Sequence record: ON528737
Reading direction: 5' to 3' (one strand)
Length of the DNA: 64,000 nt
DNA from: Shigella phage ESh27
Positions 5,711 to 63,564 of the stretch are shown here, in pieces. Within the stretch, counting starts at the first letter, position 1, and each line of letters opens with the position of its first letter. Made by a program: the position numbers and the translations under genes. Below the pieces are notes generated by a model. That model was not told the DNA's origin and ran no database searches. It was given only the letters and a program-made list of their open reading frames with translations.

Positions 5711-5734
5711 AAGGAGACTTCGGTCTCCTTTCGG
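5711..5734 (+). terminator. intrinsic terminator after gene 41
   Basis: GGAGAC-TTCG-GTCTCC hairpin 5713-5728 followed by TTT. Confidence 0.6.
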
Positions 5735-5735: not shown

Positions 5736-5772
5736 GTTTACATCTTCCTCTAGTCATGATATGATGTACTTA
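5736..5772 (+). promoter_or_regulatory. early (sigma70-type) promoter
   Basis: -35 GTTTAC 5736-5741, 18 bp spacer, -10 TATGAT 5760-5765; directly after gene 41 terminator. Confidence 0.5.
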
Positions 5773-5794
5773 CACCAACCAAGAGGAAAACATT

Positions 5795-6169
5795 ATGAAT
5801 ATGTCTCAAGCAATTTTTACTGCAATCACCGAAAACACAACTGTTGAAGTAGTTTCTCCGCTGGCAACCTACGTTATTCTTGCTCCTAAAACTATTGTAT
5901 CTCGTATGGAAAACATGGGCAAACGTATCGTACAAATCGTTGGAGCCGGAAATCAAAAACTTGATTATCTGCGAACCATCAAAGCTTATGAACATTTCCA
6001 ACTAGAAAAAGGTTCTCCCATCCAGGTAGAACTCGTAAATGGTGATATCGTTCGAGCGATGTTCCATCATTTCTACGCATTGAATGACCCATCTAAAGCT
6101 GTTCGTTTAATTGCATACGACGCAAACCAAAACGAAATCAACGCAGATATATCTAAATTACGTTTTTAA
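5795..6169 (+). CDS. hypothetical protein
   Basis: 124 aa ORF with SD (AAGAGGAAAA) after early promoter. Confidence 0.5.
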   Translation: MNMSQAIFTAITENTTVEVVSPLATYVILAPKTIVSRMENMGKRIVQIVGAGNQKLDYLRTIKAYEHFQLEKGSPIQVELVNGDIVRAMFHHFYALNDPSKAVRLIAYDANQNEINADISKLRF

Positions 6170-6205
6170 GTTTACTTCTCCGGTAGTTGTGTTATTATAG
6201 ACCTA
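6170..6205 (+). promoter_or_regulatory. early promoter
   Basis: -35 GTTTAC 6170-6175, 17 bp, -10 TATTAT 6193-6198; followed by AGACCTATCAA. Confidence 0.5.
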
Positions 6206-6224
6206 TCAACTACTGGAGAACAAA

Positions 6225-6542
6225 ATGAAAACCATCGATTGTAAAGCAGAATTTAAGATTTTTTATCACGGTTCAAGTAGTTCAGCTAACATCGAAAACA
6301 TGCTTTGTCCTCCTGAAGAAACAGGAGTTCTGTCTGAAACTGGACGTAAGAAAAACTTGGATCGTGTATTCTTTACTGAAGATATCGGTTTAGCAAAGAT
6401 TTATGCAGGACGAGCAGCACGCTCTTATGGAGGTGAACCACGTCTCTATCGAGTAATTTCTCCGGTAGACGTAGTTCAAATGAATGATACTAAAGGTGCT
6501 ACAGTTTATCACGCTGAATGGGCATTTTGCGAGGAAATATGA
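6225..6542 (+). CDS. hypothetical protein
   Basis: 105 aa ORF with SD GGAG upstream. Confidence 0.5.
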   Translation: MKTIDCKAEFKIFYHGSSSSANIENMLCPPEETGVLSETGRKKNLDRVFFTEDIGLAKIYAGRAARSYGGEPRLYRVISPVDVVQMNDTKGATVYHAEWAFCEEI

Positions 6543-6946: not shown

Positions 6947-6985
6947 GTTTACAAGCACCACATACTGTGTTACTATCTTTCTATC
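6947..6985 (+). promoter_or_regulatory. early promoter
   Basis: -35 GTTTAC 6947-6952, 18 bp, -10 TACTAT 6971-6976. Confidence 0.5.
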
Positions 6986-7004
6986 AACTACAGAGGAAAT
7001 TGAA

Positions 7005-7373
7005 ATGAAAAAATTAATCGCTTTAGCAATGGTATTTGGATTAACCGGATGTGGTGCTCATGGCTTTATCCCTAATAATGTCGGCCAATTGATTTATAAC
7101 CCGAATGTTAAACAGTACAACCAACCTAAAGTTGAAGTGGAAGACCCGGTTACTGTAGGTAATCGAATGATTCAAGCTGATGCCCATGCTCAACGTTATC
7201 GTGATTCTGATACTGTAGCATTGACAAAAGAACAACGCGTTAAAGAACATTGCTTACAGGCTACCGAAATCGCATTCATTCGCTATGTTGAAACAACTGG
7301 TAAAGAGCCTACCCAGAAACAAATCGCGAATAACTACGTCCAGTGTATTGAACGTTTAAACAAATTTAATTAA
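7005..7373 (+). CDS. putative lipoprotein
   Basis: 122 aa; signal peptide with lipobox LTGC. Confidence 0.55.
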   Translation: MKKLIALAMVFGLTGCGAHGFIPNNVGQLIYNPNVKQYNQPKVEVEDPVTVGNRMIQADAHAQRYRDSDTVALTKEQRVKEHCLQATEIAFIRYVETTGKEPTQKQIANNYVQCIERLNKFN

Positions 7374-7377
7374 TTGG

Positions 7378-7415
7378 TTTACGCCAAAGTTAAAACAAGA
7401 TACTATAAACATAAC
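7378..7415 (+). promoter_or_regulatory. early promoter
   Basis: -35 GTTTAC 7378-7383, 18 bp, -10 TACTAT 7402-7407. Confidence 0.45.
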
Positions 7416-7434
7416 AAATCAAGAGGAAATTAAC

Positions 7435-7683
7435 ATGGAATTATTCGTAGCTAGTTCAGTAGCAGTTTTAATCGCAGGTATTGGTTCAATCATCATTTAC
7501 ATGTTGCCTTGGGTAATCGCACTTATTCGTGGCACAAAAAGCACAACAGCAATCTTCTTTGTATCTTTGCTCTTTAACTGGACGATGGTTGGTTGGATTG
7601 GAACTTTAATTTGGTCTATCGTTGCCGAAAAGAAATCTGCTCAGCAGCCTCAACAAGTAATTATTATTCGCGAAAAAGAATAA
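7435..7683 (+). CDS. small membrane protein
   Basis: 82 aa with two hydrophobic helices. Confidence 0.5.
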   Translation: MELFVASSVAVLIAGIGSIIIYMLPWVIALIRGTKSTTAIFFVSLLFNWTMVGWIGTLIWSIVAEKKSAQQPQQVIIIREKE

Positions 7684-7687: not shown

Positions 7688-7725
7688 GTTTACATTATAG
7701 ATGGACTATAGTATAGTAGTCCTAT
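7688..7725 (+). promoter_or_regulatory. early promoter within inverted repeat (PeSL-like)
   Basis: -35 GTTTAC 7688-7693, -10 TATAGT 7712-7717 embedded in GGACTAT...TAGTCC palindrome, then TATCAAA. Confidence 0.5.
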
Positions 7726-7746
7726 CAAATCAACTAAGGAGTTAAA

Positions 7747-8040
7747 ATGAAAAAGTTATCATTGGCAGCAATCTTACTTGCAGTATCGTGTGCACCGGCT
7801 CCAGTTACAGCAGGTTATGATAAAGACCTCTGTGAGTGGTCAATGACTGCAAATCAAGAAGATGTTGAACAACAAATCTTCTCTGATATCATGAACATCA
7901 CTAAACGAGACCGTCCTAATATGGTTAATAAAGTTGTTGAACAACTTAAGTCTGGCGGTATCATGCAGTACAACTATGTTTTGTATTGTGACCCTAATTT
8001 CGATAACAAAGATATCATAACCGAAATCACAGGTGAATAA
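7747..8040 (+). CDS. sp: spackle-like periplasmic protein (Sp)
   Basis: 97 aa with cleavable signal peptide; size and position between 41 and 61 match T4 sp. Confidence 0.55.
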   Translation: MKKLSLAAILLAVSCAPAPVTAGYDKDLCEWSMTANQEDVEQQIFSDIMNITKRDRPNMVNKVVEQLKSGGIMQYNYVLYCDPNFDNKDIITEITGE

Positions 8041-11811: not shown

Positions 11812-11838
11812 AAGGAATCCTTCGGGATTCCTTTTTTC
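11812..11838 (+). terminator. intrinsic terminator after soc
   Basis: AAGGAATCC-TTCG-GGATTCCTT hairpin followed by TTTTTT. Confidence 0.7.
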
Positions 11839-11847
11839 GTTTCTAGA

Positions 11848-11885
11848 GTTTACAACCACTAAAAACTGTGTTAAGATATTCTTAC
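11848..11885 (+). promoter_or_regulatory. early promoter
   Basis: -35 GTTTAC 11848-11853, 18 bp, -10 TAAGAT 11872-11877; after soc terminator. Confidence 0.45.
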
Positions 11886-11905
11886 CTACTCAAGAGGAGA
11901 ACAAT

Positions 11906-12133
11906 ATGTTAAATCGTTGGATTAAACCTAATAACACATTAGGTGCTTTGATTGCTCAAGAAGTTTCGTTGAAATACGGTCTTGGATATTACGATGATGT
12001 AGTCGTACACTCATTCATGATGGATGGTGAAGACGTCAAATTTAATGCCGAAATCCGTTGGGATGATGGTGGTGTTCGTTTTGTTCGAGGAACAATTAAT
12101 GCTTACGATACTGAAGAAGTTATTTGCTGTTAA
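11906..12133 (+). CDS. hypothetical protein
   Basis: 75 aa; SD AAGAGGAGAA; after early promoter. Confidence 0.4.
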   Translation: MLNRWIKPNNTLGALIAQEVSLKYGLGYYDDVVVHSFMMDGEDVKFNAEIRWDDGGVRFVRGTINAYDTEEVICC

Positions 12134-13304: not shown

Positions 13305-13345
13305 GTTTACAACCCCTCCTCTTATGTTATGATAGACTTATCTTT
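13305..13345 (+). promoter_or_regulatory. early promoter
   Basis: -35 GTTTAC 13305-13310, 17 bp, -10 TATGAT 13328-13333, then AGACTTATC. Confidence 0.45.
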
Positions 13346-13552
13346 AAACGGAGGTCTATCATGACATGTCAATCTGAACAAGAGTACATGGTCTCGGGTA
13401 TCTCTAAATTTGAGATTGTGGAAATTGAAGACTTAGAATATATCCCTTTATCTCGATTATACAAAATCATTCATTTGAAAATGTTGAATTTTTAGTGTAC
13501 AAACTCTTCCGATGATGATACTATACCTTTATCAACCATAGGAGAAACCTAA

Positions 13553-14161
13553 ATGTTTATGCCGTATAACGAGTGTGAAATTGAAGAAATGGTTCGTCGT
13601 GCTCAAAACCCCGAATATCAAGATGTATTGCAGTACGAAATTGATAGTCAATTCAGCGACATTGAACAAAGTATACTGTGGCAGTGTATGGAAAACAAGC
13701 CAGACTGTATTCAACAGGAGTTAAGTTCAATCGTTCGTAGAAATTGGTCGTCTTCTGTTCCTGAGACAATGTATCGTGGAATCTCTAAGAAAACTATGGC
13801 CACACTCGATGATAAAGGCATTGGTAGTATTATTAAATTTGACAGAGTAATGAGCTTCAGCCCAGTGTTTGGTGTAGCACGTAACTTCGCTTCGTATAAT
13901 TTTTATGGAACATTTAATATGTTCTGTATCAAAGATGCACCATTTGCTTTCAACTTCCGTGAACATATGCTTAATATGATTCTGGCTGCGCCATCTTGTG
14001 AGTTCAATGGAGCTTTCCCTGAAGCGACAAGACGGTCTAATGCTAGACTTATATCTGACGAATGTGAATTTATGCTCCCTATAGGGACTACACTGCGTGT
14101 AGATTCTATTATTCAAGATGGAAATTATACAATCTGGAATCTGATTATTGTCAGTTACTGA
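13553..14161 (+). CDS. Mod-type ADP-ribosyltransferase (ModA/ModB-like)
   Basis: 202 aa; R-S-E triad candidates (YRG, SFSP, ECEF); T4 modA/modB position. Confidence 0.6.
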   Translation: MFMPYNECEIEEMVRRAQNPEYQDVLQYEIDSQFSDIEQSILWQCMENKPDCIQQELSSIVRRNWSSSVPETMYRGISKKTMATLDDKGIGSIIKFDRVMSFSPVFGVARNFASYNFYGTFNMFCIKDAPFAFNFREHMLNMILAAPSCEFNGAFPEATRRSNARLISDECEFMLPIGTTLRVDSIIQDGNYTIWNLIIVSY

Positions 14162-14313
14162 CTGGATTGGAATAACCGGATGGAACTCAGAACCATTATA
14201 ACACATAAAAAATTAAAGCATTTTACGAAAAAAGAGTGTACACTACCTGAGGGCATGATATTATAAGCTTATCAGCTAAATGACCTAACGTCCGTAAGAC
14301 AGAGGAAAATATT

Positions 14314-15060
14314 ATGTTATCAAATAATAAAATTAACAAAATCAATCGTCGTCTTGACCACACCAGAGCTTCTGCGAAGAGACGCTCTAAGGATTTTAAC
14401 TTAGACTTTAATTACCTTAAAAACATTCTTGATCAAAAGGTCTGCGCTTACTCAGGTGAATCTTTCAATAACTCTGTTGAAGGTGAGAAATTATCCTTAG
14501 AACGTTTTAATAACGATATCGGCTACATTAAAGGTAATGTTATCCCTGTTAAGAAAAAATATAATACGGCTCGTTCTGATTTAACATTAGAAGAACTTAT
14601 TGAGAAACGTGACGCTATTGCAAGACGTATCGCTAATCCTTCTGTCCGTAAAGTAGAGAAACTTAATCTTGATGAGAAGAAATGGGCCCAAATTAAAAAG
14701 GTTTATGGTACTATTTTAAAAATCCGAGCAAAACGTGAAAATCGTGTTAAGCATATGGCTAACATGATGAAAAATCAACCTTTATCTAACGAATCTAAAC
14801 TTAGAATTGTTGCTTTGAAGGCACGCATTAATGGCTCACATCAAGCGGAAGGCCATGAACTTACTAAACTCAACGTTCTTCTTAAAGGCTCTGACTGGAA
14901 AACTAAAACTAAATTAACTGACGCTGAATCGCTTTTCGATACATATGATAAAGTTATCCAAGGTTTGCAACGTTTTGAAAAGATTGGTTTCATTGGTAAA
15001 TTAAAATTGAAACGTGGCTTACCACTTAGCGCATCATTATTCCAACTGATTAAAGGTTAA
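14314..15060 (+). CDS. hypothetical basic protein (srd position)
   Basis: 248 aa, Lys/Arg-rich; synteny slot of T4 srd; sequence-level assignment not possible. Confidence 0.5.
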   Translation: MLSNNKINKINRRLDHTRASAKRRSKDFNLDFNYLKNILDQKVCAYSGESFNNSVEGEKLSLERFNNDIGYIKGNVIPVKKKYNTARSDLTLEELIEKRDAIARRIANPSVRKVEKLNLDEKKWAQIKKVYGTILKIRAKRENRVKHMANMMKNQPLSNESKLRIVALKARINGSHQAEGHELTKLNVLLKGSDWKTKTKLTDAESLFDTYDKVIQGLQRFEKIGFIGKLKLKRGLPLSASLFQLIKG

Positions 15061-17376: not shown

Positions 17377-17415
17377 GTTTACAACCAAGGATGGTTGGAG
17401 TATAATCTTTCTATC
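17377..17415 (+). promoter_or_regulatory. early promoter
   Basis: -35 GTTTAC 17377-17382, 18 bp, -10 TATAAT 17401-17406; spacer carries CCAAGGATGGTTGG palindrome. Confidence 0.5.
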
Positions 17416-17437
17416 TTAACCAAACAGGAAAAACATT

Positions 17438-17932
17438 ATGAATATCAATACTACGGCTACTTACATCCTGAAAGACGAAAAACAAATTAACTGGTATGGT
17501 GCTTCAGTGCGAGCTTACGAAAAGTTTTGTGAAATTTTAGGCACCACTCAAGGTAATAGTTTCACTATTGTTAACTTCATCAAACAAGCTGAAGGCCCTT
17601 GGTTATTCTTAGAAATTAAAAATTCATATGGTACAATTTCCACTACCGCCCTTCCAAGCACAGACTTTGAACTGTTGATTGAAGAAGTAGAACCCGTTAA
17701 AGACATCTGTATTGATATGGATATCGCTTGTATGTACGGTACTCTGATTAAGCCTATTGAGCCTACTGATTTGCTGTGTAAATATGTTTCAATTCGACGC
17801 CCGTTCGCAGGTCCAGTAAATGGATGGGTAACTGACCAGTGGATTGAAGACGGTGTTGAACTTCTGAACGTTGTTCATGCAGGTGATTTTAGTGTAGTTC
17901 CACGTAGTGCTGTGGTTAATATCCTTAATTAA
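17438..17932 (+). CDS. hypothetical protein, tandem paralog 1
   Basis: 164 aa; C-terminal NGWVTDQWIEDGVELLNVVHAGDFSVV block shared with the next two ORFs. Confidence 0.5.
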   Translation: MNINTTATYILKDEKQINWYGASVRAYEKFCEILGTTQGNSFTIVNFIKQAEGPWLFLEIKNSYGTISTTALPSTDFELLIEEVEPVKDICIDMDIACMYGTLIKPIEPTDLLCKYVSIRRPFAGPVNGWVTDQWIEDGVELLNVVHAGDFSVVPRSAVVNILN

Positions 17933-18913: not shown

Positions 18914-18965
18914 GTTTACTTCTCCTCTGGTTTTGATATTATAACCATATCAACCAGAGGAGAAT
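18914..18965 (+). promoter_or_regulatory. early promoter inside 12-bp perfect inverted repeat (PeSL-like)
   Basis: -35 GTTTAC 18914-18919, -10 TATTAT 18937-18942; arms TCTCCTCTGGTT 18921-18932 and AACCAGAGGAGA 18952-18963. Confidence 0.5.
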
Positions 18966-18968
18966 AAT

Positions 18969-19217
18969 ATGTTAGTTTACCGCGTAGAACGTAGTTTTTG
19001 TACTCAACGTGAATCATTACCAGGAATTGCTATTGAAGACGGTAAAGCCGTCAGAATTTGGGAAACCTCTTGGAATAAAGAACCTCGTTCGCCATACGGT
19101 TGGTCGGGCACCGACAACTCTGAAGAAACATGGGAGTTCCTTGATAAACATGGAATACTCTCAGGTAATTTCTACCATCACGGCGACAACTATAATGTCC
19201 CTAATCGTCGAAGATAA
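18969..19217 (+). CDS. hypothetical protein
   Basis: 82 aa; SD GAGGAG. Confidence 0.4.
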   Translation: MLVYRVERSFCTQRESLPGIAIEDGKAVRIWETSWNKEPRSPYGWSGTDNSEETWEFLDKHGILSGNFYHHGDNYNVPNRRR

Positions 19218-19482
19218 ACTCCTTGAACAAAATATCTTAAGATACTATAGAATTGAGCACACATTTGAATTGAGTGAAGATTGGGCTCAAGGGTTCTATT
19301 TTGGATTTGAAAGTGTTGACGCGGTTTATGCATGGTTTGATGACCAGGTAGATGTTGAACTCTTGAAAGCTAAAGGATACTACATCGCGGTCTATGAAGC
19401 ACCTGATTTCATCCTCGGAAGTTGTCAATTAGTGTTCAGACGTTCATTGGCAGAACAAGTTGATTTTATTTTGCTAAAATGA
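19195..19482 (+). CDS. hypothetical protein
   Basis: 95 aa from internal ATG of the 19009 ORF; start uncertain. Confidence 0.3.
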   Translation: MSLIVEDKLLEQNILRYYRIEHTFELSEDWAQGFYFGFESVDAVYAWFDDQVDVELLKAKGYYIAVYEAPDFILGSCQLVFRRSLAEQVDFILLK

Positions 19483-19539
19483 TGTACAACAACTATGGTC
19501 TATGATACTATAGACCTATCAAAACAAGAGGAGAATATT

Positions 19540-19767
19540 ATGAAACGTCAAATCATTAAAAACGTAACTACTGATTCAAACATCGATGAGTTTGAAGATG
19601 TTCTGTTTAATCCTGATTTAGTTGTTGTACAGAAAAACTGGACTGAATTTTTATGCTACACTGAAGTGGTTTACGTTTACGAAAAACTCGGTGATGAAAT
19701 GCCTATCTATGGTATCTTCCGTGAAATCACTGAAAATGGTACAACTTATTGGAAGGAAACTTACTAA
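19540..19767 (+). CDS. hypothetical protein
   Basis: 75 aa from ATG 19540 with SD AAGAGGAGAA. Confidence 0.45.
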
Positions 19768-23811: not shown

Positions 23812-23903
23812 ATCCTGAATCGCCTGAGGCACTATTACACATAAGATGATAGATTATATGGTCTTTAGTAATAGTGCCCTAGGAATCTACTGAAGAGAAT
23901 ATT

Positions 23904-28108: not shown

Positions 28109-28145
28109 GTTTACAACTAAGTAGGACTATGATACAGTAGTCCTA
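28109..28145 (+). promoter_or_regulatory. early promoter within inverted repeat
   Basis: -35 GTTTAC 28109-28114; -10 region inside TAGGACTA...TAGTCCTA palindrome. Confidence 0.45.
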
Positions 28146-28164
28146 TCTAAAAGAGGATAACATC

Positions 28165-28428
28165 ATGAAATTTAAATTTTTCTACGCAAAACATAAAGTG
28201 ACAGGTGAGTTTGTTTCAATGTACAACACCGCAGACGACGAAGGGATGATTTATACCCATTTAGGCCTATCTCGTTGGGACTCGGACGTGCCTTATATGT
28301 CATCTGAAGCCGAAATAACTCGTCTGGTTAATGGACATATGAACGACCATTTTGGTGTTATTCTTTCTAAAGACCTTAAAGAGGTTATCAACAAAGGATA
28401 TATGGAACTCGCGGAAGTTGAGATATGA
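28165..28428 (+). CDS. hypothetical protein
   Basis: 87 aa after early promoter. Confidence 0.45.
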   Translation: MKFKFFYAKHKVTGEFVSMYNTADDEGMIYTHLGLSRWDSDVPYMSSEAEITRLVNGHMNDHFGVILSKDLKEVINKGYMELAEVEI

Positions 28429-28620
28429 GCTCTAAAATGTGGATCGGAATATGGTTGCTTAGTATCCCTATGATTTGTATAATATTTTCAATTGCATTGA
28501 GGTACTTATGAAAAATGCACTTCTTATTGTACTAAAAACAATTTGTGATACGGTTTTTTACATTGCATGTTCTTTCACTGGAACATGGTTGGCTTTAACA
28601 TATTTTAATGTAATTTAATT

Positions 28621-28660
28621 GTTTACATCACGGTACGATTATGGTATAGTAGTCTTATCA
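28621..28660 (+). promoter_or_regulatory. early promoter
   Basis: -35 GTTTAC 28621-28626, 18 bp, -10 TATAGT 28645-28650, then TCTTATCAAAA. Confidence 0.5.
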
Positions 28661-28678
28661 AAACACGAGGAATACAAA

Positions 28679-28879
28679 ATGGCTAAGCTTTTTAAAGATG
28701 TTGAAATTGGTGAAAAATTTGTCCTGAATAATGGTCAGCAGCTTATTCGTGTAGCTTCTATCGCCGGACAAACTCATAACTGTATCGCCCCAACGTGTTG
28801 GACTCGATTCTTTATTGAAGATGACACTGAATGTTTAACTGTTGAAGAGCTTTTTGAACGTTCTGATATGACCGAATAA
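28679..28879 (+). CDS. hypothetical protein
   Basis: 66 aa from ATG 28679 (track start lies inside promoter). Confidence 0.4.
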   Translation: MAKLFKDVEIGEKFVLNNGQQLIRVASIAGQTHNCIAPTCWTRFFIEDDTECLTVEELFERSDMTE

Positions 28880-28881
28880 AA

Positions 28882-28920
28882 TTGTACAAACTCTTGAGAG
28901 CAGAGTATAATGCTCTCATG
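28882..28920 (+). promoter_or_regulatory. early promoter within inverted repeat
   Basis: -35 TTGTAC 28882-28887, 18 bp, -10 TATAAT 28906-28911 flanked by GAGAGCA/TGCTCTC. Confidence 0.5.
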
Positions 28921-28955
28921 GATTACAAAAACATTAATCAATTGAGGAAATTAGC

Positions 28956-29402
28956 ATGACCAAATATTTAACTCGTAAAGACCTTCTGGCCGTTGGCGGT
29001 GAAGTTGTTGCAGTAGTTCGTAATGGTGAATACGGTTCCGAAGTTTCTAAAGAGTTTCGTTCTCGTGAAGGTTTTTACTTCTTTGTTAAAGGTTCATCTG
29101 ACTGGCGACAAGTAGCAGCACGATTCTTTGTAGGACGCCAACGTTCTAAACAAGGGTTAGATGCAATTCTTTCTCACATTCGTCAAGGCCGTTCGCAACT
29201 GGCTCGTACCATGGGCACTAATAATATTGAATATGATGTAATCTTTGTTTCAGCCAAGAACATGAAACCTCTGACTACCGGTTATGGTAAAGGTCAATTG
29301 GCTCTGGCATTCACTCGCAATCATTCATCAGAATATCAAACACTCACTGAAATGAACCGTCTTCTGGCTGATAATTTCAAATTCATTCTGCAGAGTTACT
29401 AA
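28956..29402 (+). CDS. hypothetical protein (Ndd-sized, ndd slot)
   Basis: 148 aa between rIIB and 52; followed by hairpin GGCCTA-TTAAGT-TAGGCC + T-run. Confidence 0.5.
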
Positions 29403-31148: not shown

Positions 31149-31180
31149 GGGAGCTTCGGCTCCCTTTGTGCATTTTTTTC
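31149..31180 (+). terminator. intrinsic terminator after gene 52
   Basis: GGGAGC-TTCG-GCTCCC hairpin 31149-31164 then TTTGTGCATTTTTTT. Confidence 0.6.
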
Positions 31181-31190
31181 TCACAAAACA

Positions 31191-31228
31191 GTTTACATGT
31201 GCTTCAAACGTGATATTATAGACCTATC
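31191..31228 (+). promoter_or_regulatory. early promoter upstream of motA
   Basis: -35 GTTTAC 31191-31196, 17 bp, -10 TATTAT 31214-31219, then AGACCTATCAA. Confidence 0.5.
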
Positions 31229-31258
31229 AAAACAAAACAACCAAATTGGAGAAATAAA

Positions 31259-31891
31259 ATGTCTAAAGTTACTTACATCATCAAAGCTTCTGAAAACGCT
31301 CTGAATGAAAAAACTGCGGCAATAATGGTTTATATCATTAAGAACAACTTCACCACTGCTGCCAATGTCCGTGAAGCTCTGGAAGCAGAATACAATGCAT
31401 CAGTTGTTAACTCTAACATTGGTGTATTGATTAAGAAAGGTTTAGTCGAAAAATCCGGTGATGGACTTGTGGCAACCGGCGAAGCAATGGATATTATCCA
31501 AAAAGCTGCAGACCTATTTGCTCAAGAAAATGCTCCAGAACTTCTTCAGAAACGTAACACTAGAAAAGCACGTGGAGTTACTCCTGAAATGCATGAATTA
31601 GCAAACTTTGTTTTTGAAAATATTAAAGATAAAGTTGAAGTTAAAGAAATTGGTGAAAACCGTAGTAACTTGGAAGTTCGATTTGCAAAACGAGTTCTAG
31701 GTATTCGCCAAATTGAAATTCGACGAGATGGCGCTCTTAGAATCTTTGCATACAACATGTCAGAAGCTGAATCAAAGCTGTTTACTTCTCTTGAAAATGA
31801 TGTTAAGATTAAGATCGGTGGTAAATATACTTACATTGACTTCCCTAATGTGTCCAAAGAAATCATTACCCTTGTAACTAACGTACTGTGA
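31259..31891 (+). CDS. motA: MotA middle-transcription activator
   Basis: 210 aa; N-terminus MSKVTYIIKAS and NSNIGVLIKKGLVEKSGDGL block. Confidence 0.8.
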   Translation: MSKVTYIIKASENALNEKTAAIMVYIIKNNFTTAANVREALEAEYNASVVNSNIGVLIKKGLVEKSGDGLVATGEAMDIIQKAADLFAQENAPELLQKRNTRKARGVTPEMHELANFVFENIKDKVEVKEIGENRSNLEVRFAKRVLGIRQIEIRRDGALRIFAYNMSEAESKLFTSLENDVKIKIGGKYTYIDFPNVSKEIITLVTNVL

Positions 31892-33559: not shown

Positions 33560-33721
33560 ATGAGCCATAATCTTCAGAACGTAGTAGAGGCAGAACGTGA
33601 GCGTGAGGCTTTAGTCTATAATGAACTATTAGCCACGTTCTTGGCCTTACACTCGTATGAACAAGAAGACTACACTGATTACGTTAAAAGTGTAGAAAAA
33701 GCTGTTTACAATCAACACTGA
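33560..33721 (+). CDS. hypothetical small protein
   Basis: 53 aa from ATG 33560. Confidence 0.3.
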   Translation: MSHNLQNVVEAEREREALVYNELLATFLALHSYEQEDYTDYVKSVEKAVYNQH

Positions 33722-33767
33722 TAATGGTACTATAATCGTATCAACCAAATGGAATGAATAAAACGTT

Positions 33768-34040
33768 ATGAATAAAGATATTGAAATTGTACGTGAAATT
33801 ATTACTGTTGCTTCTATTTTGATTAAATTCTCGAGGGAAGATATTGTTGAAGACCGAGCAAATTTCATCGGATTCTTGAATGAGATTGGAATTAAAAAAG
33901 ATGGTCGACAGCTAAATCAGAGTTCGTTCAGAAAACTAATTACAAATTTAACTGCCGAAGAAAAGAAAACACTGATTAGTGAATTCAATGAAGGTTTTGA
34001 AAATATTTATCGCCATTTGACGATGTATTCTAACAACTAA
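33768..34040 (+). CDS. asiA: AsiA anti-sigma70 factor
   Basis: 90 aa; REIITVASILIKFSREDIVE...EFNEGFE block characteristic of AsiA. Confidence 0.85.
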   Translation: MNKDIEIVREIITVASILIKFSREDIVEDRANFIGFLNEIGIKKDGRQLNQSSFRKLITNLTAEEKKTLISEFNEGFENIYRHLTMYSNN

Positions 34041-44529: not shown

Positions 44530-44607
44530 AATGAGTAAAAGACTATTTACGCTTTCGAACTAGTATGTTACTATAGTCCAAGTTGACTAACTGAACAAGA
44601 GGTTCAT

Positions 44608-45525
44608 ATGGATTTAGAAATGATGTTGGATGAGGATTACAAAGAAGGTATTGCACTTGCAGACTTTAGTAACATTGCATTAGCAGCTGCATTAAACAAC
44701 TTTGAAGACGGTGATAAAATTACTGTTCCGATGGTTCGCCATGTAATCTTGAATTCAATTCGTAAAAACGTAGTGATGTTCCGTAAGCAAGGTTATACAA
44801 AATTTGTATTGTGCATGGATAACGCTACTTCCGGGTATTGGCGACGCGACTTTGCTTACTATTACAAGAAAAATCGTAAAACTGATCGTGAAGCTTCAAA
44901 GTGGGATTGGGAAGGATATTTTACTGCACTCCATCAAGTCGTTGATGAGATTAAGAAATATATGCCATACGTTGTAATGGATATTGACAAATACGAAGCG
45001 GATGACCATATCGGTGTATTAACTAAATATTTGTCATTAGCTGGTCATAAGGTGTGTATTGTTGCATCAGATGGTGACTTTACACAATTACACAAATACC
45101 CTAACGTTAAACAGTGGTCGCCACCGCAGAAAAAATGGGTTAAAATTAAGAATGGTTCTGCCGAAATTGATTGCATGACTAAAATTCTTAAAGGCGACCG
45201 TAAAGATGGTGTTGCGTCTGTTCGAGTTCGTGGTGATTTCTGGTTTACTCGAGTTGAAGGCGAACGAACTCCGAGTATGAAAACAACGATTATTGAAGCA
45301 ATTGCTAATGACCGTTCTCAAGCTGAAGTATTATTAAGTGCAGAAGAATATAAACGGTATCAAGAAAATTTGGTTCTCATTGATTTTGATTATATCCCTG
45401 ATAATATTGCTTCAACCATTATAGAGTATTATAACTCATATAAACAACAACCTAAAGGCAAGATTTATTCATACTTTGTAAAATCCGGCCTTTCTAAATT
45501 AACAAGTGTAATTAACGAATTCTGA
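44608..45525 (+). CDS. rnh: RNase H (5'-3' exonuclease, FEN family)
   Basis: 305 aa; size and position divergent from gene 34 as in T4. Confidence 0.8.
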   Translation: MDLEMMLDEDYKEGIALADFSNIALAAALNNFEDGDKITVPMVRHVILNSIRKNVVMFRKQGYTKFVLCMDNATSGYWRRDFAYYYKKNRKTDREASKWDWEGYFTALHQVVDEIKKYMPYVVMDIDKYEADDHIGVLTKYLSLAGHKVCIVASDGDFTQLHKYPNVKQWSPPQKKWVKIKNGSAEIDCMTKILKGDRKDGVASVRVRGDFWFTRVEGERTPSMKTTIIEAIANDRSQAEVLLSAEEYKRYQENLVLIDFDYIPDNIASTIIEYYNSYKQQPKGKIYSYFVKSGLSKLTSVINEF

Positions 45526-47793: not shown

Positions 47794-47816
47794 GGGAGAC
47801 TTCGGTCTCCCTTTTG
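47794..47816 (+). terminator. intrinsic terminator after gene 32
   Basis: GGGAGAC-TTCG-GTCTCCC hairpin + TTTT. Confidence 0.7.
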
Positions 47817-47842
47817 AGTATCTGTAAATTACCGAAAAGGTT

Positions 47843-47880
47843 GTTTACTTCTTCCCTGGATGTGTTAGTATAGACTTATC
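47843..47880 (+). promoter_or_regulatory. early promoter
   Basis: -35 GTTTAC 47843-47848, 17 bp, -10 TAGTAT 47866-47871; after gene 32 terminator. Confidence 0.45.
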
Positions 47881-47900
47881 AACAACATGAGGAAATCAAA

Positions 47901-48293
47901 ATGGAAATCGGAAAATCTTATATCATTAACCCTTTATTTAAAGACGACTTTGTTCAAGAAGCACCACACAATAACGCTAAGATGTTAAAATTGATTGAAC
48001 TCCATGGGCCTAGTTTTGTTGTAAACGGAATGGAACCTGATTATGATAGCGATACGCCAAACGTAGTAAGTGTAACTATGGAAGATGGTACTGTATGTTC
48101 TGCCGCTGGTGAAATTGAAACTTATTTTGAGATTTATCCTGACGAGTTCAAATACTTTACTGAGGTAGATTTAGTAAAGCCTCAACCTACTAACGAAGGT
48201 ATAACTTTAGGTGTAACAAAAATCCATTGTATCGTAGATGAAACCAACGTCGACGAAATCATCGAACTTTTGCAAAAAACTTTTAAAAAGTAG
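47901..48293 (+). CDS. hypothetical protein
   Basis: 130 aa after early promoter. Confidence 0.5.
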   Translation: MEIGKSYIINPLFKDDFVQEAPHNNAKMLKLIELHGPSFVVNGMEPDYDSDTPNVVSVTMEDGTVCSAAGEIETYFEIYPDEFKYFTEVDLVKPQPTNEGITLGVTKIHCIVDETNVDEIIELLQKTFKK

Positions 48294-48355
48294 TGTATAA
48301 TCAGATAGGGTTATGTTATAGTAGCCCTATCAAATCAAAAGTGAAGGAGAATAAA

Positions 48356-48604
48356 ATGAGATTACAACGTCAGAGCATCAAAGATTCTGAAGTTAAAGGT
48401 AAATGGTATTTCAACATCGTTGGTAAAGACGCTGAACTCCTTGAACAAGCTGAAGAAGCTTTACGTGAAATGGGTTGGAATGAAGAATGTGATGGATGTC
48501 CACTCTACGAAGACGGCGAAAGTGCAGGATTCTGGATTCACCACTCTGACGTTGAATCGTTTAAAGCCGATTGGAAAGTTGTTAAGAAAAATCTGAGGAA
48601 ATAA
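48356..48604 (+). CDS. hypothetical protein
   Basis: 82 aa from ATG 48356 with SD GAAGGAGA. Confidence 0.45.
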   Translation: MRLQRQSIKDSEVKGKWYFNIVGKDAELLEQAEEALREMGWNEECDGCPLYEDGESAGFWIHHSDVESFKADWKVVKKNLRK

Positions 48605-50307: not shown

Positions 50308-50394
50308 CGCTTCAGTTTAAAAGTGTATAATAAATTAACGGGATAAATACTATCCCGTTTGGAGTAATGTCTATCAACCTATACCGAGGAATAT

Positions 50395-53907: not shown

Positions 53908-54318
53908 ATGAAAGATATTGCCGCCGAATATTCCTTTATTAAATATATAGAATTGGAGCTATTAGAAGATGCAACAATTAAAACCATTGATGCCCCTAAT
54001 AAGAAAAATGTCATATACGCTATTGCTATAGATGACGAACTTGTGTATATTGGTAAAACCAAGAATTTAAAGAAACGCATTAACTATTATCGAACAGCCA
54101 TAAATCGAAAAGACCAGACTTCAGATTCAAGAAAATCACTTATGATTTTGGATGCCTTAATGCAAGGCAAAAAGGTTGAATTCTGGGCCCGCCAATGTTT
54201 TGACCTTTCAGTCACTAACGAACTCGGTTCAATGACCATTGCAACAATGGACCTTGAAGAACCGCTTTTTATCAAAAAGTTCAACCCGCCTTGGAATATC
54301 CAACATAAGAAAAAGTAG
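53908..54318 (+). CDS. denA: endonuclease II (GIY-YIG)
   Basis: 136 aa; GIY-YIG-like VIYAIAIDDELVYIGKT; size and position after nrdB. Confidence 0.7.
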   Translation: MKDIAAEYSFIKYIELELLEDATIKTIDAPNKKNVIYAIAIDDELVYIGKTKNLKKRINYYRTAINRKDQTSDSRKSLMILDALMQGKKVEFWARQCFDLSVTNELGSMTIATMDLEEPLFIKKFNPPWNIQHKKK

Positions 54319-54355
54319 TTTACATACCACAAGGATTGTGGTACAATTTAAAAAA
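54318..54355 (+). promoter_or_regulatory. early promoter upstream of rnlA
   Basis: -35 GTTTAC 54318-54323, 18 bp, -10 TACAAT 54342-54347; spacer palindrome CCACAAGGATTGTGG. Confidence 0.45.
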
Positions 54356-54363
54356 CTAACTGA

Positions 54364-55497
<1,134 letters not shown>

Positions 55498-55559
55498 TGG
55501 TTTACAAACACCAAGGAAGGTGTTACTATGGCTTTTATCAACAACACGAGGAGAAAATT

Positions 55560-56060
55560 ATGAATATGCAATTGATTACTAACGATATGGTCGTAACCGC
55601 TTTTGGAGACACAACTGACGGAATCCGAGTCTTTAAGAAAGGACGTCCAGTTGGTTATCTTACTGACCTCCGTGTTACACTGGCCAAAAATCTTAAAAAG
55701 AAAGTAAAACAAAAAGAGTATTCCACCCGATACGCCGAAGAGAAACGCGAAGCGATGCCGGAAGCAGTTAATGCCATGGTAGAATTTCTTCAAAACAATT
55801 TGACTAAATATGACGCTAATGTGTTCATTAATATTAGTCAACCAAACGTACATATCGCAGGTATAAAATTCTACATTATTTGCGACCCTCTTACCGACAA
55901 ATTCAACCGCCTCGGAATTTCAAGCCCGTATCATACAGCAGAAGAGTTGTGTGTATTGTTTGAATCGTACAAAATCCAGTGTGATGGTTTGAAAACCGTT
56001 CTTATCAATGGATTATCCCGAGATGAAATCATTGAGATTATTAAAACATGCTTAAAGTAA
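55560..56060 (+). CDS. alc: hypothetical protein (alc position)
   Basis: 166 aa from ATG 55560 (SD GAGGAGAA); assignment by size/synteny only. Confidence 0.4.
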   Translation: MNMQLITNDMVVTAFGDTTDGIRVFKKGRPVGYLTDLRVTLAKNLKKKVKQKEYSTRYAEEKREAMPEAVNAMVEFLQNNLTKYDANVFINISQPNVHIAGIKFYIICDPLTDKFNRLGISSPYHTAEELCVLFESYKIQCDGLKTVLINGLSRDEIIEIIKTCLK

Positions 56061-56691: not shown

Positions 56692-56906
56692 CTAAAGAAC
56701 AGCATGAATACATTAAAGGGCTTATCTATGAATCTGAAATGGCGGCTATGATTTATGGCCGTCTGATTCAACGATTAGAATCTTTGCCTCCGACTAATGA
56801 CCGCTTGTTAGTTCAGTCTCGTGCTAATCTGAAAAATGAATATCAGAACAAGTGGGCAGTAGCGACTAAAGCTCTTCATGAGTATATCGAATCTTTAGTA
56901 AAATAG
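56682..56906 (+). CDS. hypothetical protein
   Basis: 74 aa. Confidence 0.4.
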   Translation: MPMTKEQHEYIKGLIYESEMAAMIYGRLIQRLESLPPTNDRLLVQSRANLKNEYQNKWAVATKALHEYIESLVK

Positions 56907-56945
56907 TTTACAAACTCTCGGGAGCAGAGTATAATGCTCCTATGG
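56906..56945 (+). promoter_or_regulatory. early promoter within inverted repeat
   Basis: -35 GTTTAC 56906-56911, 18 bp, -10 TATAAT 56930-56935 flanked by GGAGCA/TGCTCC; near-copy of the 28882 element. Confidence 0.5.
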
Positions 56946-56963
56946 ATAATTGAGGAAATCTAA

Positions 56964-57262
56964 ATGAAAACATTACTAGAGAATTATATCAAACGGTCAG
57001 ATGAGTATATTGATATCTGCCGTGGAATGTCACTTGTCAATTATGATAAAGATGCAGCAAAGGCCATAGATGAAGCAGGTAAAGCTCTTCGTAAAGCTGC
57101 TAAAGAAAAAGGGTTGGATTTGCAACAACTCAAAAGTCATATGATTAAATTTATTTCTTCAAACGTTAGAAGTACGTCAATTAATAAAAACGTTGCTGAA
57201 ATTAATAAAGACCGGCGCGAACATAACATTCGTATTCTTGAAGCTTTCTTAGGAATAAAATA

Positions 57263-59029: not shown

Positions 59030-59068
59030 GTTTACAACACCGTAGAGTTGTGATATGATGACTCTACC
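59030..59068 (+). promoter_or_regulatory. early promoter
   Basis: -35 GTTTAC 59030-59035, 18 bp, -10 TATGAT 59054-59059; flanked by CGTAGAGT/ACTCTAC. Confidence 0.45.
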
Positions 59069-59086
59069 AACAATGAGGAAATTGAA

Positions 59087-59323
59087 ATGCTAAGTGAAAA
59101 TCCAATTACAGTACACGAATTTCAGATTAAAGTAAAAGAATTTGCTCAAGCACTCATCAATAAAGTGTCTGAACGTTTCCAGGATGCAACATTACGAGTT
59201 ATTCAAGAATCTCCACGTTCTTTTCTCATAATCGTTAATCCTAAAGATGGTGACCAAATTACTAATCTTAAATTAGGCAGTGATGGTCTTGTTGAAGCAA
59301 CTCGAGTATATGGAACACTATAA
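59087..59323 (+). CDS. hypothetical protein
   Basis: 78 aa after early promoter. Confidence 0.45.
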   Translation: MLSENPITVHEFQIKVKEFAQALINKVSERFQDATLRVIQESPRSFLIIVNPKDGDQITNLKLGSDGLVEATRVYGTL

Positions 59324-61315: not shown

Positions 61316-61317
61316 TA

Positions 61318-61342: not shown

Positions 61343-61372
61343 TAATCTATCGTCAAACAACAAGGAAATAAG

Positions 61373-62625: not shown

Positions 62626-62630
62626 TTTTA

Positions 62631-62654
62631 GGGAGACTTCGGTCTCCCTTTTGT
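62631..62654 (+). terminator. intrinsic terminator
   Basis: GGGAGAC-TTCG-GTCTCCC hairpin + TTTT. Confidence 0.7.
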
Positions 62655-62684
62655 GTGTTTAGGGCAGAAAAAGTTTAAAAAGAT

Positions 62685-62722
62685 GTTTACTCTCCTGTAG
62701 GATGTGTTACTATAGACTTGTA
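62685..62722 (+). promoter_or_regulatory. early promoter
   Basis: -35 GTTTAC 62685-62690, 17 bp, -10 TACTAT 62708-62713. Confidence 0.45.
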
Positions 62723-62755
62723 CCACCTAATCAATAAAACAAACTGGAGAATAAA

Positions 62756-63124
62756 ATGAAAATCAATCTGAACTCATACATCGAATGTAAAGACCACGAC
62801 GGTTATAAAGCTATCGAAATTAAAGAATTCCAGTGGATGTTATACAAAGAGCAATTTGAGATCGTAGGTTGTATGACCCCTGAAGGTCCTTCAAATGATT
62901 TCTCTTGGAAAATTGTGTTAGCAAACTTTTTCACAGGTGACACATACGAATTAAAAACTATTATTACCGGTAAAATTCGTTCAGAAACATATGTTGACGA
63001 AGAAACTGGTTACTCTGAAGATGTTACATGGTATCAAAATGGACGCATTACAGCAGATAACCTTATCGAAAAAATGAAAGCCAAAGGTGTTTTAAATTTA
63101 GACAATTGGATTAAAGTTGCATAA
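62756..63124 (+). CDS. hypothetical protein
   Basis: 122 aa after early promoter. Confidence 0.5.
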   Translation: MKINLNSYIECKDHDGYKAIEIKEFQWMLYKEQFEIVGCMTPEGPSNDFSWKIVLANFFTGDTYELKTIITGKIRSETYVDEETGYSEDVTWYQNGRITADNLIEKMKAKGVLNLDNWIKVA

Positions 63125-63128: not shown

Positions 63129-63165
63129 GTTTACTTTGGTACAGGTTATGTTATTATAGACCTGT
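63129..63165 (+). promoter_or_regulatory. early promoter within inverted repeat
   Basis: -35 GTTTAC 63129-63134, 17 bp, -10 TATTAT 63152-63157 inside GGTACAGG...CCTGTACC. Confidence 0.45.
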
Positions 63166-63198
63166 ACCAACAAACAACTTAAACATCCGGAGAATAAA

Positions 63199-63564
63199 AT
63201 GAACTACATCAACTTCGAACGTAAATATGTTTCTAACGGTATCGCTGGTTCTTCTGAAGTTATTTGCTTATGGAAACACAAAAACGGTACAGTTTGTGAA
63301 ATCGAACAGTGCATGACTCCTAATTACGTTTATATGCGATTTGAAAATGGCATCACGGTTTCAATCACGATGGAAGGTTCTACTTTTAAAATCGCTTTAG
63401 ATGATGATTTCCGTCAACGTGATTTAGGTACTCATCCTTGCTGGAATGGTGTTAATCGTAAACTTCTGGTTAAAACTTGGATTCGTCATATCCTGAGTAA
63501 CCGAGCTAAACCTGAACATCTCGAAGCAATCTTTGATGTAGTTCTTAATGAATTCGATATCTAA
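63199..63564 (+). CDS. hypothetical protein
   Basis: 121 aa after early promoter. Confidence 0.5.
   Translation: MNYINFERKYVSNGIAGSSEVICLWKHKNGTVCEIEQCMTPNYVYMRFENGITVSITMEGSTFKIALDDDFRQRDLGTHPCWNGVNRKLLVKTWIRHILSNRAKPEHLEAIFDVVLNEFDI

Follow-up and report, generated by a model that had tools for sequence, protein, structure and literature searches.

Stem-loops associated with early promoters have been described in T4-type phages, where they are known as promoter early stem-loops (PeSLs). In RB49 and phi1, the stem-loop lies between the -35 and -10 elements or overlaps the -10 (Arbiol et al., 2010, PMC2839356). For PST/T4 and nt-1/KVP40, it was later described as lying directly ahead of the promoter (Comeau et al., 2014, PMC4122927). 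The term 'PeSL-like analogs' has been used for the internal-protein loci of T-even phages, where the promoters are T4 early ones and the stems are weaker and AT-rich (Repoila, 1994, cited through PMC2839356). Another arrangement is known from the T4 genes e, soc, 49 and I-TevI, in which the promoter is located inside a hairpin that sequesters the ribosome-binding site (PMC3014915). As to early promoters in general, Hinton (2010, PMC2988021) speaks only of 'additional regions of consensus' at them. Here we describe the early promoters of Shigella phage ESh27 (record ON528737), and the inverted repeats in which they are embedded, in a stretch of 64,000 nucleotides (nt) that is called the window below. 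The reading which we favour, with only moderate confidence, is that the -35/-10 spacer encodes the 5' half of a helix that would form only in read-through RNA and would insulate the downstream gene, in about one-third of the cases by occlusion of its ribosome-binding site, and that recombination between such cassettes is a by-product.

The window is the early region of a Mosigvirus and is 96-97% identical to phiC120, JS09, ST0 and other relatives of RB69. Its gene annotation was transferred from RB69 and JS09, and its + strand is the direction of the early genes. Gene content was aligned with that of four close relatives, namely RB69, JS09, ST0 and O157 typing phage 13; the last (KP869111) is a scrambled partial genome and was used only in part. 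For comparison across genera, a five-genome set was used, consisting of the window, T4, the Dhakavirus dhaeg, a Kosakonia phage and a Klebsiella phage, with 89 promoters in all. Since promoters are not annotated in the T4 RefSeq record, those of T4 were predicted by the rule that was applied to the window. No Rfam family matched anything in the window.

A perfect GTTTAC followed by a 17- or 18-nt spacer and TAnnnT (at most two mismatches to TATAAT) has 21 matches on the + strand and a single one on the - strand, whereas 0.58 +/- 0.79 occurrences, with a maximum of 4, are expected by chance (200 dinucleotide shuffles). The first-pass annotation of this DNA had counted at least 20 sites of this kind, and that count holds. 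The match at 31780, inside motA, is probably a false one. With a weight matrix built from 24 curated sites and a listing cutoff of 18 bits, 25 sites are listed on the + strand, all with at least 21 bits, and the best score on the - strand is 8.7; new among them are the sites before cef (19482) and frd.1 (48293), both with a weaker -35. The site at 28882, with the degenerate -35 TTGTAC, lies below the cutoff and was curated by hand as the 26th, so that the window has 26 early promoters, with a spacer of 17 nt in nine and 18 nt in 17. The strict combination of GTTTAC and TATAAT has only two matches in the window, and the -10 is thus better called 'TATAAT-like'. A scan of 1-20 kb with the generic sigma-70 consensus was uninformative (69 sites against 68.5 expected); the T4-specific consensus alone separates signal from noise.

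The elements follow one another as an A-rich upstream element, GTTTAC, the 17-18 nt spacer and TGn-TAnnAT, the TG being often present upstream of the -10. In the promoter alignment, the A-rich UP-like region lies at about -40 to -44 (e.g., aaaagtGTTTAC and aaaacaGTTTAC). The start is predicted about 7 nt after the -10, at the A of CCTATCAA, in agreement with the RB69 logo (PMC1524935), and the Shine-Dalgarno (SD) sequence and start codon follow, with 25-49 nt between -10 and ATG. A conserved (A/T)AGAC(C/T)TATCAA downstream of the -10 had also been proposed. Its core T-A-T-C is indeed present in 17-21 of the 24 promoters, but the motif is looser than claimed, as AGAC[CT]TATCAA occurs exactly only four times and with at most two mismatches in 8 of the 24. 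Judged by their sequence, the window sites are T4-type early sigma-70 promoters. Their consensus matches that published for T4 and RB69 (PMC1524935, PMC2988021); for RB69, a total of 57 early promoters has been predicted over the whole genome, which agree with those here in the -35, the -10, the upstream element and the C-rich -3..-1, and several orthologues of the window sites are among the catalogued early promoters of T4 and RB69 (PMC1524935).

The sites had been called intergenic, which has to be qualified: of 25 promoters, 18 have a -35 that starts no more than 6 nt from the upstream stop codon (median 2), and in six it overlaps the stop. Because the -35 is so close to the upstream stop codon, upstream transcription must run into the cassettes. 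Abutment or overlap of the two (TAA|GTTTAC, TAG|TTTAC) is seen, for example, at 6170, 13305, 54318, 56906 and 59030, so that the A-rich UP-like element falls within the coding sequence of the upstream gene. At the other promoters, a canonical terminator comes first, built of a GC stem, a UUCG loop and a T run; examples are GGGAGACTTCGGTCTCCC after gene 32 and that at 11812-11833.

All four palindromes quoted in the first-pass annotation are present: TAGGACTA/TAGTCCTA at 28122-28129 and 28138-28145, GAGAGCA/TGCTCTC at 28896-28902 and 28911-28917, GGAGCA/TGCTCC at 56921-56926 and 56935-56940, and GGTACAGG/CCTGTACC at 63138-63145 and 63161-63168. Across the promoters, the 5' arm is nearly always in the -35/-10 spacer and mostly starts directly after the -35. 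Two positions of the 3' arm were distinguished. In class b, the 3' arm extends from the last base of the -10 to about +14, and the -10 is in the loop. In class c, it lies on the SD and/or AUG of the downstream gene. Across the five genomes there are 22 distinct class c helices, and their 5' arms are in the spacer, upstream of the predicted +1, in all cases. As the predicted start is inside the repeat, the RNA made from the promoter itself would not contain the 5' arm, and only read-through RNA could form the helix. The leaders are short (about 20-40 nt), and therefore a 3' arm of 10-14 nt must land near the start site or on the SD. Assignments of the individual promoters are given in Table 1.

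The arms are matched beyond chance. As a control, chimeras were made by joining the half of promoter i from -35 to -10 with the leader of promoter j, which keeps the consensus, the position-specific composition and the length. Helices were scored without gaps, with G.T and A.C treated alike, and a score of at least 7 was taken as the threshold. The mean minimum free energy (MFE) of the window promoters is -10.96, whereas that of the chimeras is -8.54 +/- 0.48 (z=-5.0; 0/20000 permutations). With an automated promoter set, the window gives z=-4.8 for MFE and 6.0 for helix score, T4 (34 promoters) -9.8 and 10.1, and dhaeg (28 promoters) -7.4 and 9.0, each with 0/10000 permutations. From the significance in all three it follows that the enrichment is real and general to T-even-type phages, not a peculiarity of the window. 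In the five-genome set, a helix score of at least 7 is reached by 51 of the 89 promoters against 379 of 2276 chimeras (17%). The enrichment of palindromes at promoters, which the first-pass annotation had made the test of its proposal, is also evident against the genome at large: a promoter-spanning helix of at least 7 is found in 12 of the 26 window promoters, whereas only 9.3% of 2739 equally sized windows taken at random from the genome reach this score (binomial p=1e-6). Three more window promoters have perfect 6-bp stems.

The pairing is conserved across genera, with covariation of the arms. Close relatives keep the stems through structure-compatible changes; for example, a G.U pair of the window at 6170 is A-U in JS09, ST0 and RB69. 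The region of 59030 is only 85% identical to relatives, yet it holds three pair-preserving changes. A family of the form GTTTACAAACTCTT-stem-AGAGTATAAT-stem, made up of 28882 and 56906 in the window, T4 PmotB and two copies in dhaeg, is nearly invariant outside the stem. Within the stem, three of the seven pairs are compensatory, and 97% are paired as against 34-51% when the 3' partner is slid. A search of IMG/VR with the protein of ORF231c (the open reading frame, ORF, downstream of 56906) alone led to a single locus. At the alc promoter, a helix between spacer and SD occurs in four genera with unrelated extensions, and 25 of 28 distinct sequences from IMG/VR have a helix, with 20 distinct arm pairs. 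When all orthologues of this promoter were aligned with MAFFT, the arms of different lineages fell 1-2 columns out of register, and formal pair counting was thus limited to eight in-register sequences. Over their 14 pairs, 95.5% are paired, a value that drops to 30-55% on sliding; four of the pairs are compensatory, and the covariation score of 0.314 compares with 0.168 +/- 0.028 (0/500 shuffles). The main evidence for pairing is the detection of helices sequence by sequence, with chimeric nulls. At the 30.7 promoter, a helix is found in 21 of 24 distinct sequences with 14 arm pairs; the orthologues include five unrelated class b arm pairs, and one lineage pairs the spacer with the SD instead (ATCCTCCGTTGTATGT/ACATACAACGGAGAAT). 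Since pairing is kept while the sequence changes, neither a sequence-specific protein site nor selection for homology among the copies is a likely cause.

Embedded helices and upstream terminators are mutually exclusive. In the five-genome set, a helix of at least 7 is present at 47 of the 68 promoters without an upstream terminator-like hairpin but at only 4 of the 21 with one (odds ratio 9.5, p=8e-5), the latter being close to the chimeric background. Since helices are rare after terminators, the embedded helix behaves as a substitute for a terminator and so as a shield from RNA that arrives from upstream. In partition-function folding, the predicted mean unpaired probability of the SD and AUG falls from 0.62 in RNA started at the promoter itself to 0.45 in read-through RNA. 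SD accessibility is bimodal, with low values in the predicted read-through RNA at 6170, 13305, 14236, 18914, 31191, 47843 and 55500 (rank 0-1 among 25 chimeric upstream sequences); at these seven sites the predicted accessibility of SD and AUG is 0.15-0.26 with the native and 0.42-0.59 with foreign upstream sequence. At 18914, SD accessibility is 0.25 against 0.46 in the chimeras (rank 0 of 25). Non-Watson-Crick positions in the five-genome helices are G.T in 28 cases and A.C in five, against 162 and 95 in chimeras (p=0.012). An excess of G.T over A.C is the signature expected of structure in the sense-strand RNA. Long loops, anchoring on the SD and dependence on terminators favour a role in RNA, and we infer that it is there that the helix acts.

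The mechanism that we favour would run as follows. Strong early promoters stand immediately behind the stop codon of the gene before them, and in roughly half of them the otherwise unconstrained spacer carries, shortly after the -35, a stretch complementary to the start-site region (class b) or to the SD/AUG (class c). The helix would form only when RNA comes into the cassette from a promoter further upstream, and it would insulate the downstream cistron from that read-through RNA, taking the place of a canonical terminator upstream of the promoter. In class c, the ribosome-binding site would be occluded, and efficient translation would be possible only from the gene's own early-promoter mRNA; alternatively, a ribosome terminating a few nt upstream would open the helix and permit translation. 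A ribosome that terminates within about 7-12 nt of the 5' arm could bring about translational coupling. In class b, the intercistronic hairpin may serve in attenuation, in protection of RNA ends or as structural insulation. A broader proposition is that spacers across Tevenvirinae (T4, RB69-like phages, Dhakavirus, Kanagawavirus, Jiaodavirus and more in IMG/VR) code for an anti-SD or anti-leader, by which dozens of early genes would switch according to the origin of the transcript; this we put forward tentatively, as a possibility with somewhat less than even chances.

Several points weigh against this explanation. About 40-50% of the promoters have no helix, the transcription starts are predicted ones, and every functional step is a prediction. 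Classes b and c may be one continuum. The exclusion of helices by terminators is equally expected if each cassette needs one stem-loop for any purpose. Over all 26 promoters, SD accessibility is 0.449 with native and 0.487 with chimeric upstream sequence, a weak difference (z=-1.8), and in class b cassettes such as 28882, 48293 and 56906 the SD is more accessible than in chimeras. The eight alc sequences were picked for their shared register, which inflates the percentage paired. Finally, the wobble bias was not reproduced in two orthologue sets (seven G.T, five A.C, six transversions), so that a role at the level of RNA over one at the level of DNA is only suggested by it.

The embedded stem-loops might instead be terminators or attenuators of upstream transcription, a role put forward by the PeSL authors, which stand in for a canonical terminator where the promoter abuts the upstream gene. 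This is unlikely, though it survives best among the alternatives. It would account for the mutual exclusion of embedded helices and upstream terminators; one RB49 stem-loop cut expression of downstream lacZ about as much as rrnB T1 did (PMC2839356), and one sampled RB49 hairpin (position 3201) has a T run after it. However, a T-rich tail, defined as at least five T in the 8 nt after the stem, was found in none of the 29 class b hairpins of the window, T4, dhaeg, Kosakonia and Klebsiella phages (mean 2.0 T). Class c loops are 20-35 nt long and contain the -10, unlike those of intrinsic terminators, and true terminators in the same genomes are distinct in their GC-rich stem, UUCG loop and T run. 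By sequence, then, the embedded helix does not qualify as an intrinsic terminator. Delayed-early expression in T4, moreover, needs read-through of early transcripts (PMC2988021).

Also unlikely, and next in order, is that the cassettes serve mainly as PeSLs in the strict sense, dispersed homologous or hairpin DNA sites for insertion, deletion and swapping of ORFs, including through mini-circles, with the stem-loops and promoters as the vehicle of this mobility. Recombination of this kind has been published for RB49/phi1, PST/T4 and nt-1/KVP40 (PMC2839356, PMC4122927), and the first-pass annotation had likened the window cassettes to those proposed as recombination hotspots. There are about nine gene-content differences between the window and the four close relatives, and two are at promoter cassettes. 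JS09 and ST0 have an extra ORF, JS09_0189, between two copies of about 80 bp that run from the -35 of the motA promoter through the leader to the 9th nt of the gene; in RB69, an additional ORF245c is joined to frd.2 via a 26-bp repeat of the leader and ribosome-binding site (47878-47903), downstream of promoter 47843. Both events bear the PeSL hallmark. The others are off early promoters: an ORF at 11245-11526 present only in the window, a 438-bp deletion in modB, insertions of JS09_0212 and aroF, a replacement at 62178-62331, divergence after 30.7 and a 55-bp indel in motB. Indels away from cassettes have 9-19 bp of microhomology inside or between genes.

Junctions with promoters are not enriched in synteny breakpoints, the odds ratio being 1.08 for T4 and 0.96 for dhaeg (both p=1), and among the close relatives breakpoints fall at 2 of 23 promoter junctions and 7 of 74 others (p=1). 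The result is unchanged when only junctions of at least 40 bp are considered; the test is crude and of low power, as there are only four close relatives and some paralogues may be mis-assigned. Thus the comparison of cassettes with breakpoints, which the first-pass annotation had itself suggested as a check, yielded no association and no support for hotspots in this window; overall, the description of the cassettes as recombination hotspots is weakly supported. As portable homology the copies offer little, with a mean pairwise identity of 45%, a maximum of 62% over 90 nt and a longest exact run of 19 nt. Divergence of the arms with pairing kept amounts to selection for structure, which lowers homology between copies, and the depletion of helices where a terminator already stops upstream RNA likewise speaks against a recombination device. 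Recombination between cassette copies happens occasionally and looks like a side effect.

Some of these gene-content differences deserve a description of their own. The 44-aa ORF at 13361-13495 is a remnant of modB: 438 bp are missing in comparison with RB69, JS09 and ST0, and the ends are joined across 9 bp (13371-13379). It had been considered as a cassette swapped between two promoters; this was rejected, since it is what a deletion via 9-bp microhomology has left. Judging from the sequence, the phage probably has no functional ModB ADP-ribosyltransferase. The 93-aa ORF at 11245-11526, between 56 and soc, is absent from RB69, JS09, ST0, T4 and dhaeg; at this locus RB69 has 193 bp of other sequence and JS09/ST0 have 0-14 bp, and no early promoters flank it. 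An aroF-like gene (59444-60436; phospho-2-dehydro-3-deoxyheptonate aldolase in relatives) is situated between cd.2 and cd. JS09 and phiC120 have it, whereas RB69, T4 and dhaeg do not, and the endpoints of the insertion, about 59338 and 60433, are off early promoters.

That the inverted repeats act in DNA is improbable. They would do so as a cruciform or hairpin at the -10 that tunes promoter opening or shut-off, or as a target of replication or recombination proteins. The -10 is enclosed by the repeat in every case, the mechanism of early-promoter shut-off in T4 is unexplained (PMC2988021, PMC3014915), and the wobble bias is not robust. On the other hand, loops of 8-35 nt are unfavourable for cruciform extrusion, and G.T outnumbers A.C in the five-genome set. 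A role in DNA predicts neither the depletion of helices downstream of RNA terminators nor the repeated anchoring of 3' arms on the SD with covarying extensions. Very improbable is a functionless origin from self-complementarity of the consensus (TGATA...TATCA) or from templated mutation of quasi-palindromes by strand switching, for although templated correction of quasi-palindromes is established in T4, consensus-derived 5-bp TGATA/TATCA pairing is seen at 13495, 31191 and 33704 and chimeras already reach a mean helix score of about 5.7, the chimeras retain consensus and composition but lose the helices, one orthologous promoter (alc) has 20 different arm pairs, helices are depleted after terminators and they are about 5-fold above random genomic windows.

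Table 1. Early promoters of the window (+ strand) with the repeats, hairpins and terminators found at them; classes b and c are as defined in the text.
Upstream of	Coordinates	Promoter elements	Helix, hairpin or terminator	Class	Further data
ORF041c	5736..5797 +		terminator-like hairpin GGAGACTTCGGTCTCC before the promoter, about 5714-5729; weak helix TCTTCCTCT/AGAGGAAAA, spacer with SD	c, weaker	
ORF040c	6170..6227 +		14-bp helix 6176-6189/6207-6220 (TTCTCCGGTAGTTG/CAACTACTGGAGAA); 3' arm over SD	c	
imm.1	6947..7007 +		no significant helix		
imm	7377..7437 +		no significant helix		
sp	7688..7749 +		arms GGACTA 7703-7708, TAGTCC 7717-7722; 6 bp	b	
mrh.2	11812..11908 +	promoter 11848	intrinsic terminator 11812-11833 and T run, then promoter; no promoter-spanning helix		
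modB remnant	13305..13366 +		5' arm 13325-13339, includes -10; 3' arm 13352-13366, over SD and ATG	c	-10 region pairs with GGTCTATCATG; same layout in T4 (ATGATAGCTTCTG/CGGAGGCTATCAT) and dhaeg (ATGACCTCTA/TGGAGGTCAT)
modA	13495..13555 +	-35 GTGTAC	only 5-bp consensus-derived TGATA/TATCA pairing		
srd	14236..14316 +	-35 GTGTAC	-10 region CATGATATT (14254-14262) can pair with start-codon region AATATTATG (14308-14316)	c, weaker	
motB.1	17377..17440 +	perfect GTTTAC-N18-TATAAT	small spacer hairpin AACCA/TGGTT	spacer-internal	
motB.2	18914..18971 +		perfect 13-bp helix; 5' arm 18920-18932 (TTCTCCTCTGGTT, directly after -35); 3' arm 18952-18964 (AACCAGAGGAGAA, the SD)	c	MFE -23.9; 0/46 chimeras as low
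cef	19482..19542 +	-35 ATGTAC; weight matrix only	arms GGTCTAT 19497-19503, ATAGACC 19510-19516	b	
ORF270c	28109..28167 +	-35 28109-28114; -10 28133-28138 TACAGT (TATAGT in relatives); ATG 28165	arms 28118-28129, 28138-28149; -10 in loop	b	MFE -13.4; 2/46 chimeras as low
ndd.1	28621..28681 +	-35 28621; -10 28645-28650	stem with C.T mismatch in the window		G-C at the mismatch in RB69, JS09, ST0 and typing phage 13, giving 11-bp stem GGTAGGATTAT/GTAGTCCTATC
ndd	28882..28958 +	-35 TTGTAC (degenerate); -10 TATAAT 28906-28911	arms 28895-28902, 28911-28918 (TGAGAGCA/TGCTCTCA)	b	family GTTTACAAACTCTT-stem-AGAGTATAAT-stem
motA	31150..31261 +	promoter 31191	terminator hairpin GGAGCTTCGGCTCC and T run, then promoter; no promoter-spanning helix		
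asiA	33704..33770 +	overlaps ORF258c 3' end; stop codon within spacer	no significant helix		
rnh	44545..44610 +	early-type; -35 ATTTAC	no significant helix		divergent junction with late gene 34
frd.2	47800..47903 +	promoter 47843	terminator hairpin GGGAGACTTCGGTCTCCC, then promoter		
frd.1	48293..48358 +	-35 GTGTAT; weight matrix	arms 48304-48313, 48322-48331 (GATAGGGTTA/TAGCCCTATC)	b	
rnlA	54318..54375 +		hairpin fully within spacer (TACCACAA/TTGTGGTA, 54325-54343)	spacer-internal	
alc	55500..55562 +		hairpin AACACC/GGTGTT	spacer-internal	most other Tevenvirinae: 9-15 bp helix, spacer with SD
ORF231c	56906..56966 +		arms GGAGCA 56921-56926, TGCTCC 56935-56940	b	family of 28882; compensatory changes against copies at 28882, T4 PmotB and dhaeg
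cd.2	59030..59089 +		arms GTAGAGT 59042-59048, ACTCTAC 59061-59067	b	orthologue arms: RB69 GGTGGAGTT/AACTCTACC; T4 GGTAGAGTT/AGCTCTACC; dhaeg GGTAGGACT/AGTCCTACC
30.8	62628..62758 +	promoter 62685	terminator hairpin AGGGAGACTTCGGTCTCCCT, then promoter; no strong promoter-spanning helix		
30.7	63129..63201 +	-10 in 13-nt loop; predicted start about 63164, within 3' arm	arms 63136-63146, 63160-63170 (TTGGTACAGGT/ACCTGTACCAA)	b	MFE -19.7; 0/46 chimeras as low

The genes among which these promoters are distributed follow one another on the + strand as uvsX, 41, 61, 56, modA, dda, motB, 39, rIIA, rIIB, ndd, 52, motA and asiA. A block of late tail-fibre genes on the - strand occupies 34-44.5 kb, and after it come rnh, 32, frd, td, nrdAB, rnlA, alc, pseT, cd, 31, rIII and 30.9 to 30.6. 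Junctions without early promoters (2633-2753, 50292-50400 and 61300-61378) carry MotA-box-like middle promoters, such as ATGCTTTAcgaatagtatggTATTAT upstream of gene 31 and AATGCTGTA...TATATAAT upstream of uvsX. Another junction without an early promoter, upstream of rIIA.1, has a very stable long hairpin, GGCACTATTAC...GTAATAGTGCC, at about 23826-23880 (junction fold -33 kcal/mol), which has neither a UUCG loop nor a T run, unlike the terminators of the window.

Further observations concern single cassettes and their genes. Directly downstream of 18914, the strongest SD-occluding helix, the reading frame of motB.2 is broken into two, 18969-19217 (82 aa) and 19009-19482 (157 aa, with GTG as the start). 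The match to RB69 MotB.2 is limited to residues 83-174 of the latter, at 19204-19479, and the frameshift is either that of a pseudogene or a sequencing error. In T4 (NC_000866), 14 bp at 133300-133313 are recorded as the 'inverted complement of previously reported sequence', a correction to Pe133295 between cd.2 and cd.3. This stretch lies at the orthologue of window promoter 59030, which has the hairpin GGTAGAGTT/AGCTCTACC in T4, and the flip between inverted arms may reflect an error of sequencing or a true polymorphism by inversion. In Klebsiella phage 15882-3-5, the promoters 7068 and 8076, about 1 kb apart, share the leader agacctgtaccacccaaacag. Only 8076 has the matching 5' arm TTGGGTGGT; 7068, which comes after a canonical terminator, has none.

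If the favoured reading is true, one short sequence has two roles: in DNA it belongs to a strong promoter, and in RNA from upstream it silences the next gene. This would explain how strong promoters can stand in tandem against stop codons without terminators, each small early gene having its own expression programme, and why the spacer is conserved in pairing and not in sequence. It would also explain how early proteins cease to be made while transcripts still read through from upstream. Under the broader proposition on Tevenvirinae, the gene would be silenced in read-through RNA or dependent there on translation of the upstream cistron, and translation from its own mRNA would be free. The principle of e, soc, 49 and I-TevI would then be widened from a few cases with late promoters to a genome-wide feature of early genes, and regulation after transcription would have a share in the rapid shut-off of early protein synthesis. 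Those who engineer T4-like phages or reuse early promoters as parts would have to reckon with spacers that silence the next ribosome-binding site when transcripts read through. The published view of the cassettes as primarily recombination devices is tempered, as no breakpoint enrichment was detectable in this lineage.

The promoters are the same as those of the T4 and RB69 catalogues (Nolan et al., 2006, PMC1524935; Hinton, 2010, PMC2988021), and the RB69 genome paper (PMC1524935) mentions no hairpin, stem-loop, palindrome or inverted repeat. No description of a spacer-encoded anti-SD was found in PMC1524935, PMC3014915 or PMC2988021 or by keyword searches, a scope that leaves the older primary literature and the 2003 genome review outside. 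Compared with the PeSLs of RB49/phi1, the window elements share the stem-loop layout and the occurrence of many copies in early, gene-variable regions, and hairpins with the -10 in the loop, as in class b, were found here in RB49 itself. By their predicted stems they come under the anatomical definition of a PeSL, as the first-pass annotation had proposed, but they lack conserved copies and an association with indels, the two bases of the shuffling model. Their consensus is GTTTAC/TAnnAT, whereas that of PeSLs is TTGACA/TATAAT; the stems are not polyG/polyC, the copies are far less alike (45% identity), and there is no excess of indels at cassettes. A large subclass, in addition, pairs with the SD/AUG, which is not mentioned in the accessible part of PMC2839356, where translation is not mentioned either. 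With the PeSLs of the PST/T4 type, the window shares the T4 early consensus (TTTACW...N17...TAYWAT) and weaker, AT-richer stems, and a terminator hairpin lies just upstream at 5736, 11848, 31191, 47843 and 62685 (4-5 promoters). Unlike in that type, most helices in the window and in T4 span the -10 and are depleted where there is an upstream terminator.

The hairpins of T4 e, soc, 49 and I-TevI resemble class c most closely in their predicted function. There, the helix hides the SD/AUG in long transcripts initiated upstream, as class c helices would by prediction, and the internal promoter gives a shorter RNA without the 5' arm that is translatable, as is predicted for the window. They differ in that their internal promoter is late (or middle), which delays expression, whereas that of the window is an early sigma-70 promoter, and in that the anti-SD of the window lies in the -35/-10 spacer and recurs at dozens of genes. 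The kind of element is known, and the variant with a spacer-encoded anti-SD and its conservation across genera appear to be new. By analogy, the SD-occluding subclass may be a variant of the T4 hairpin-promoter switches.

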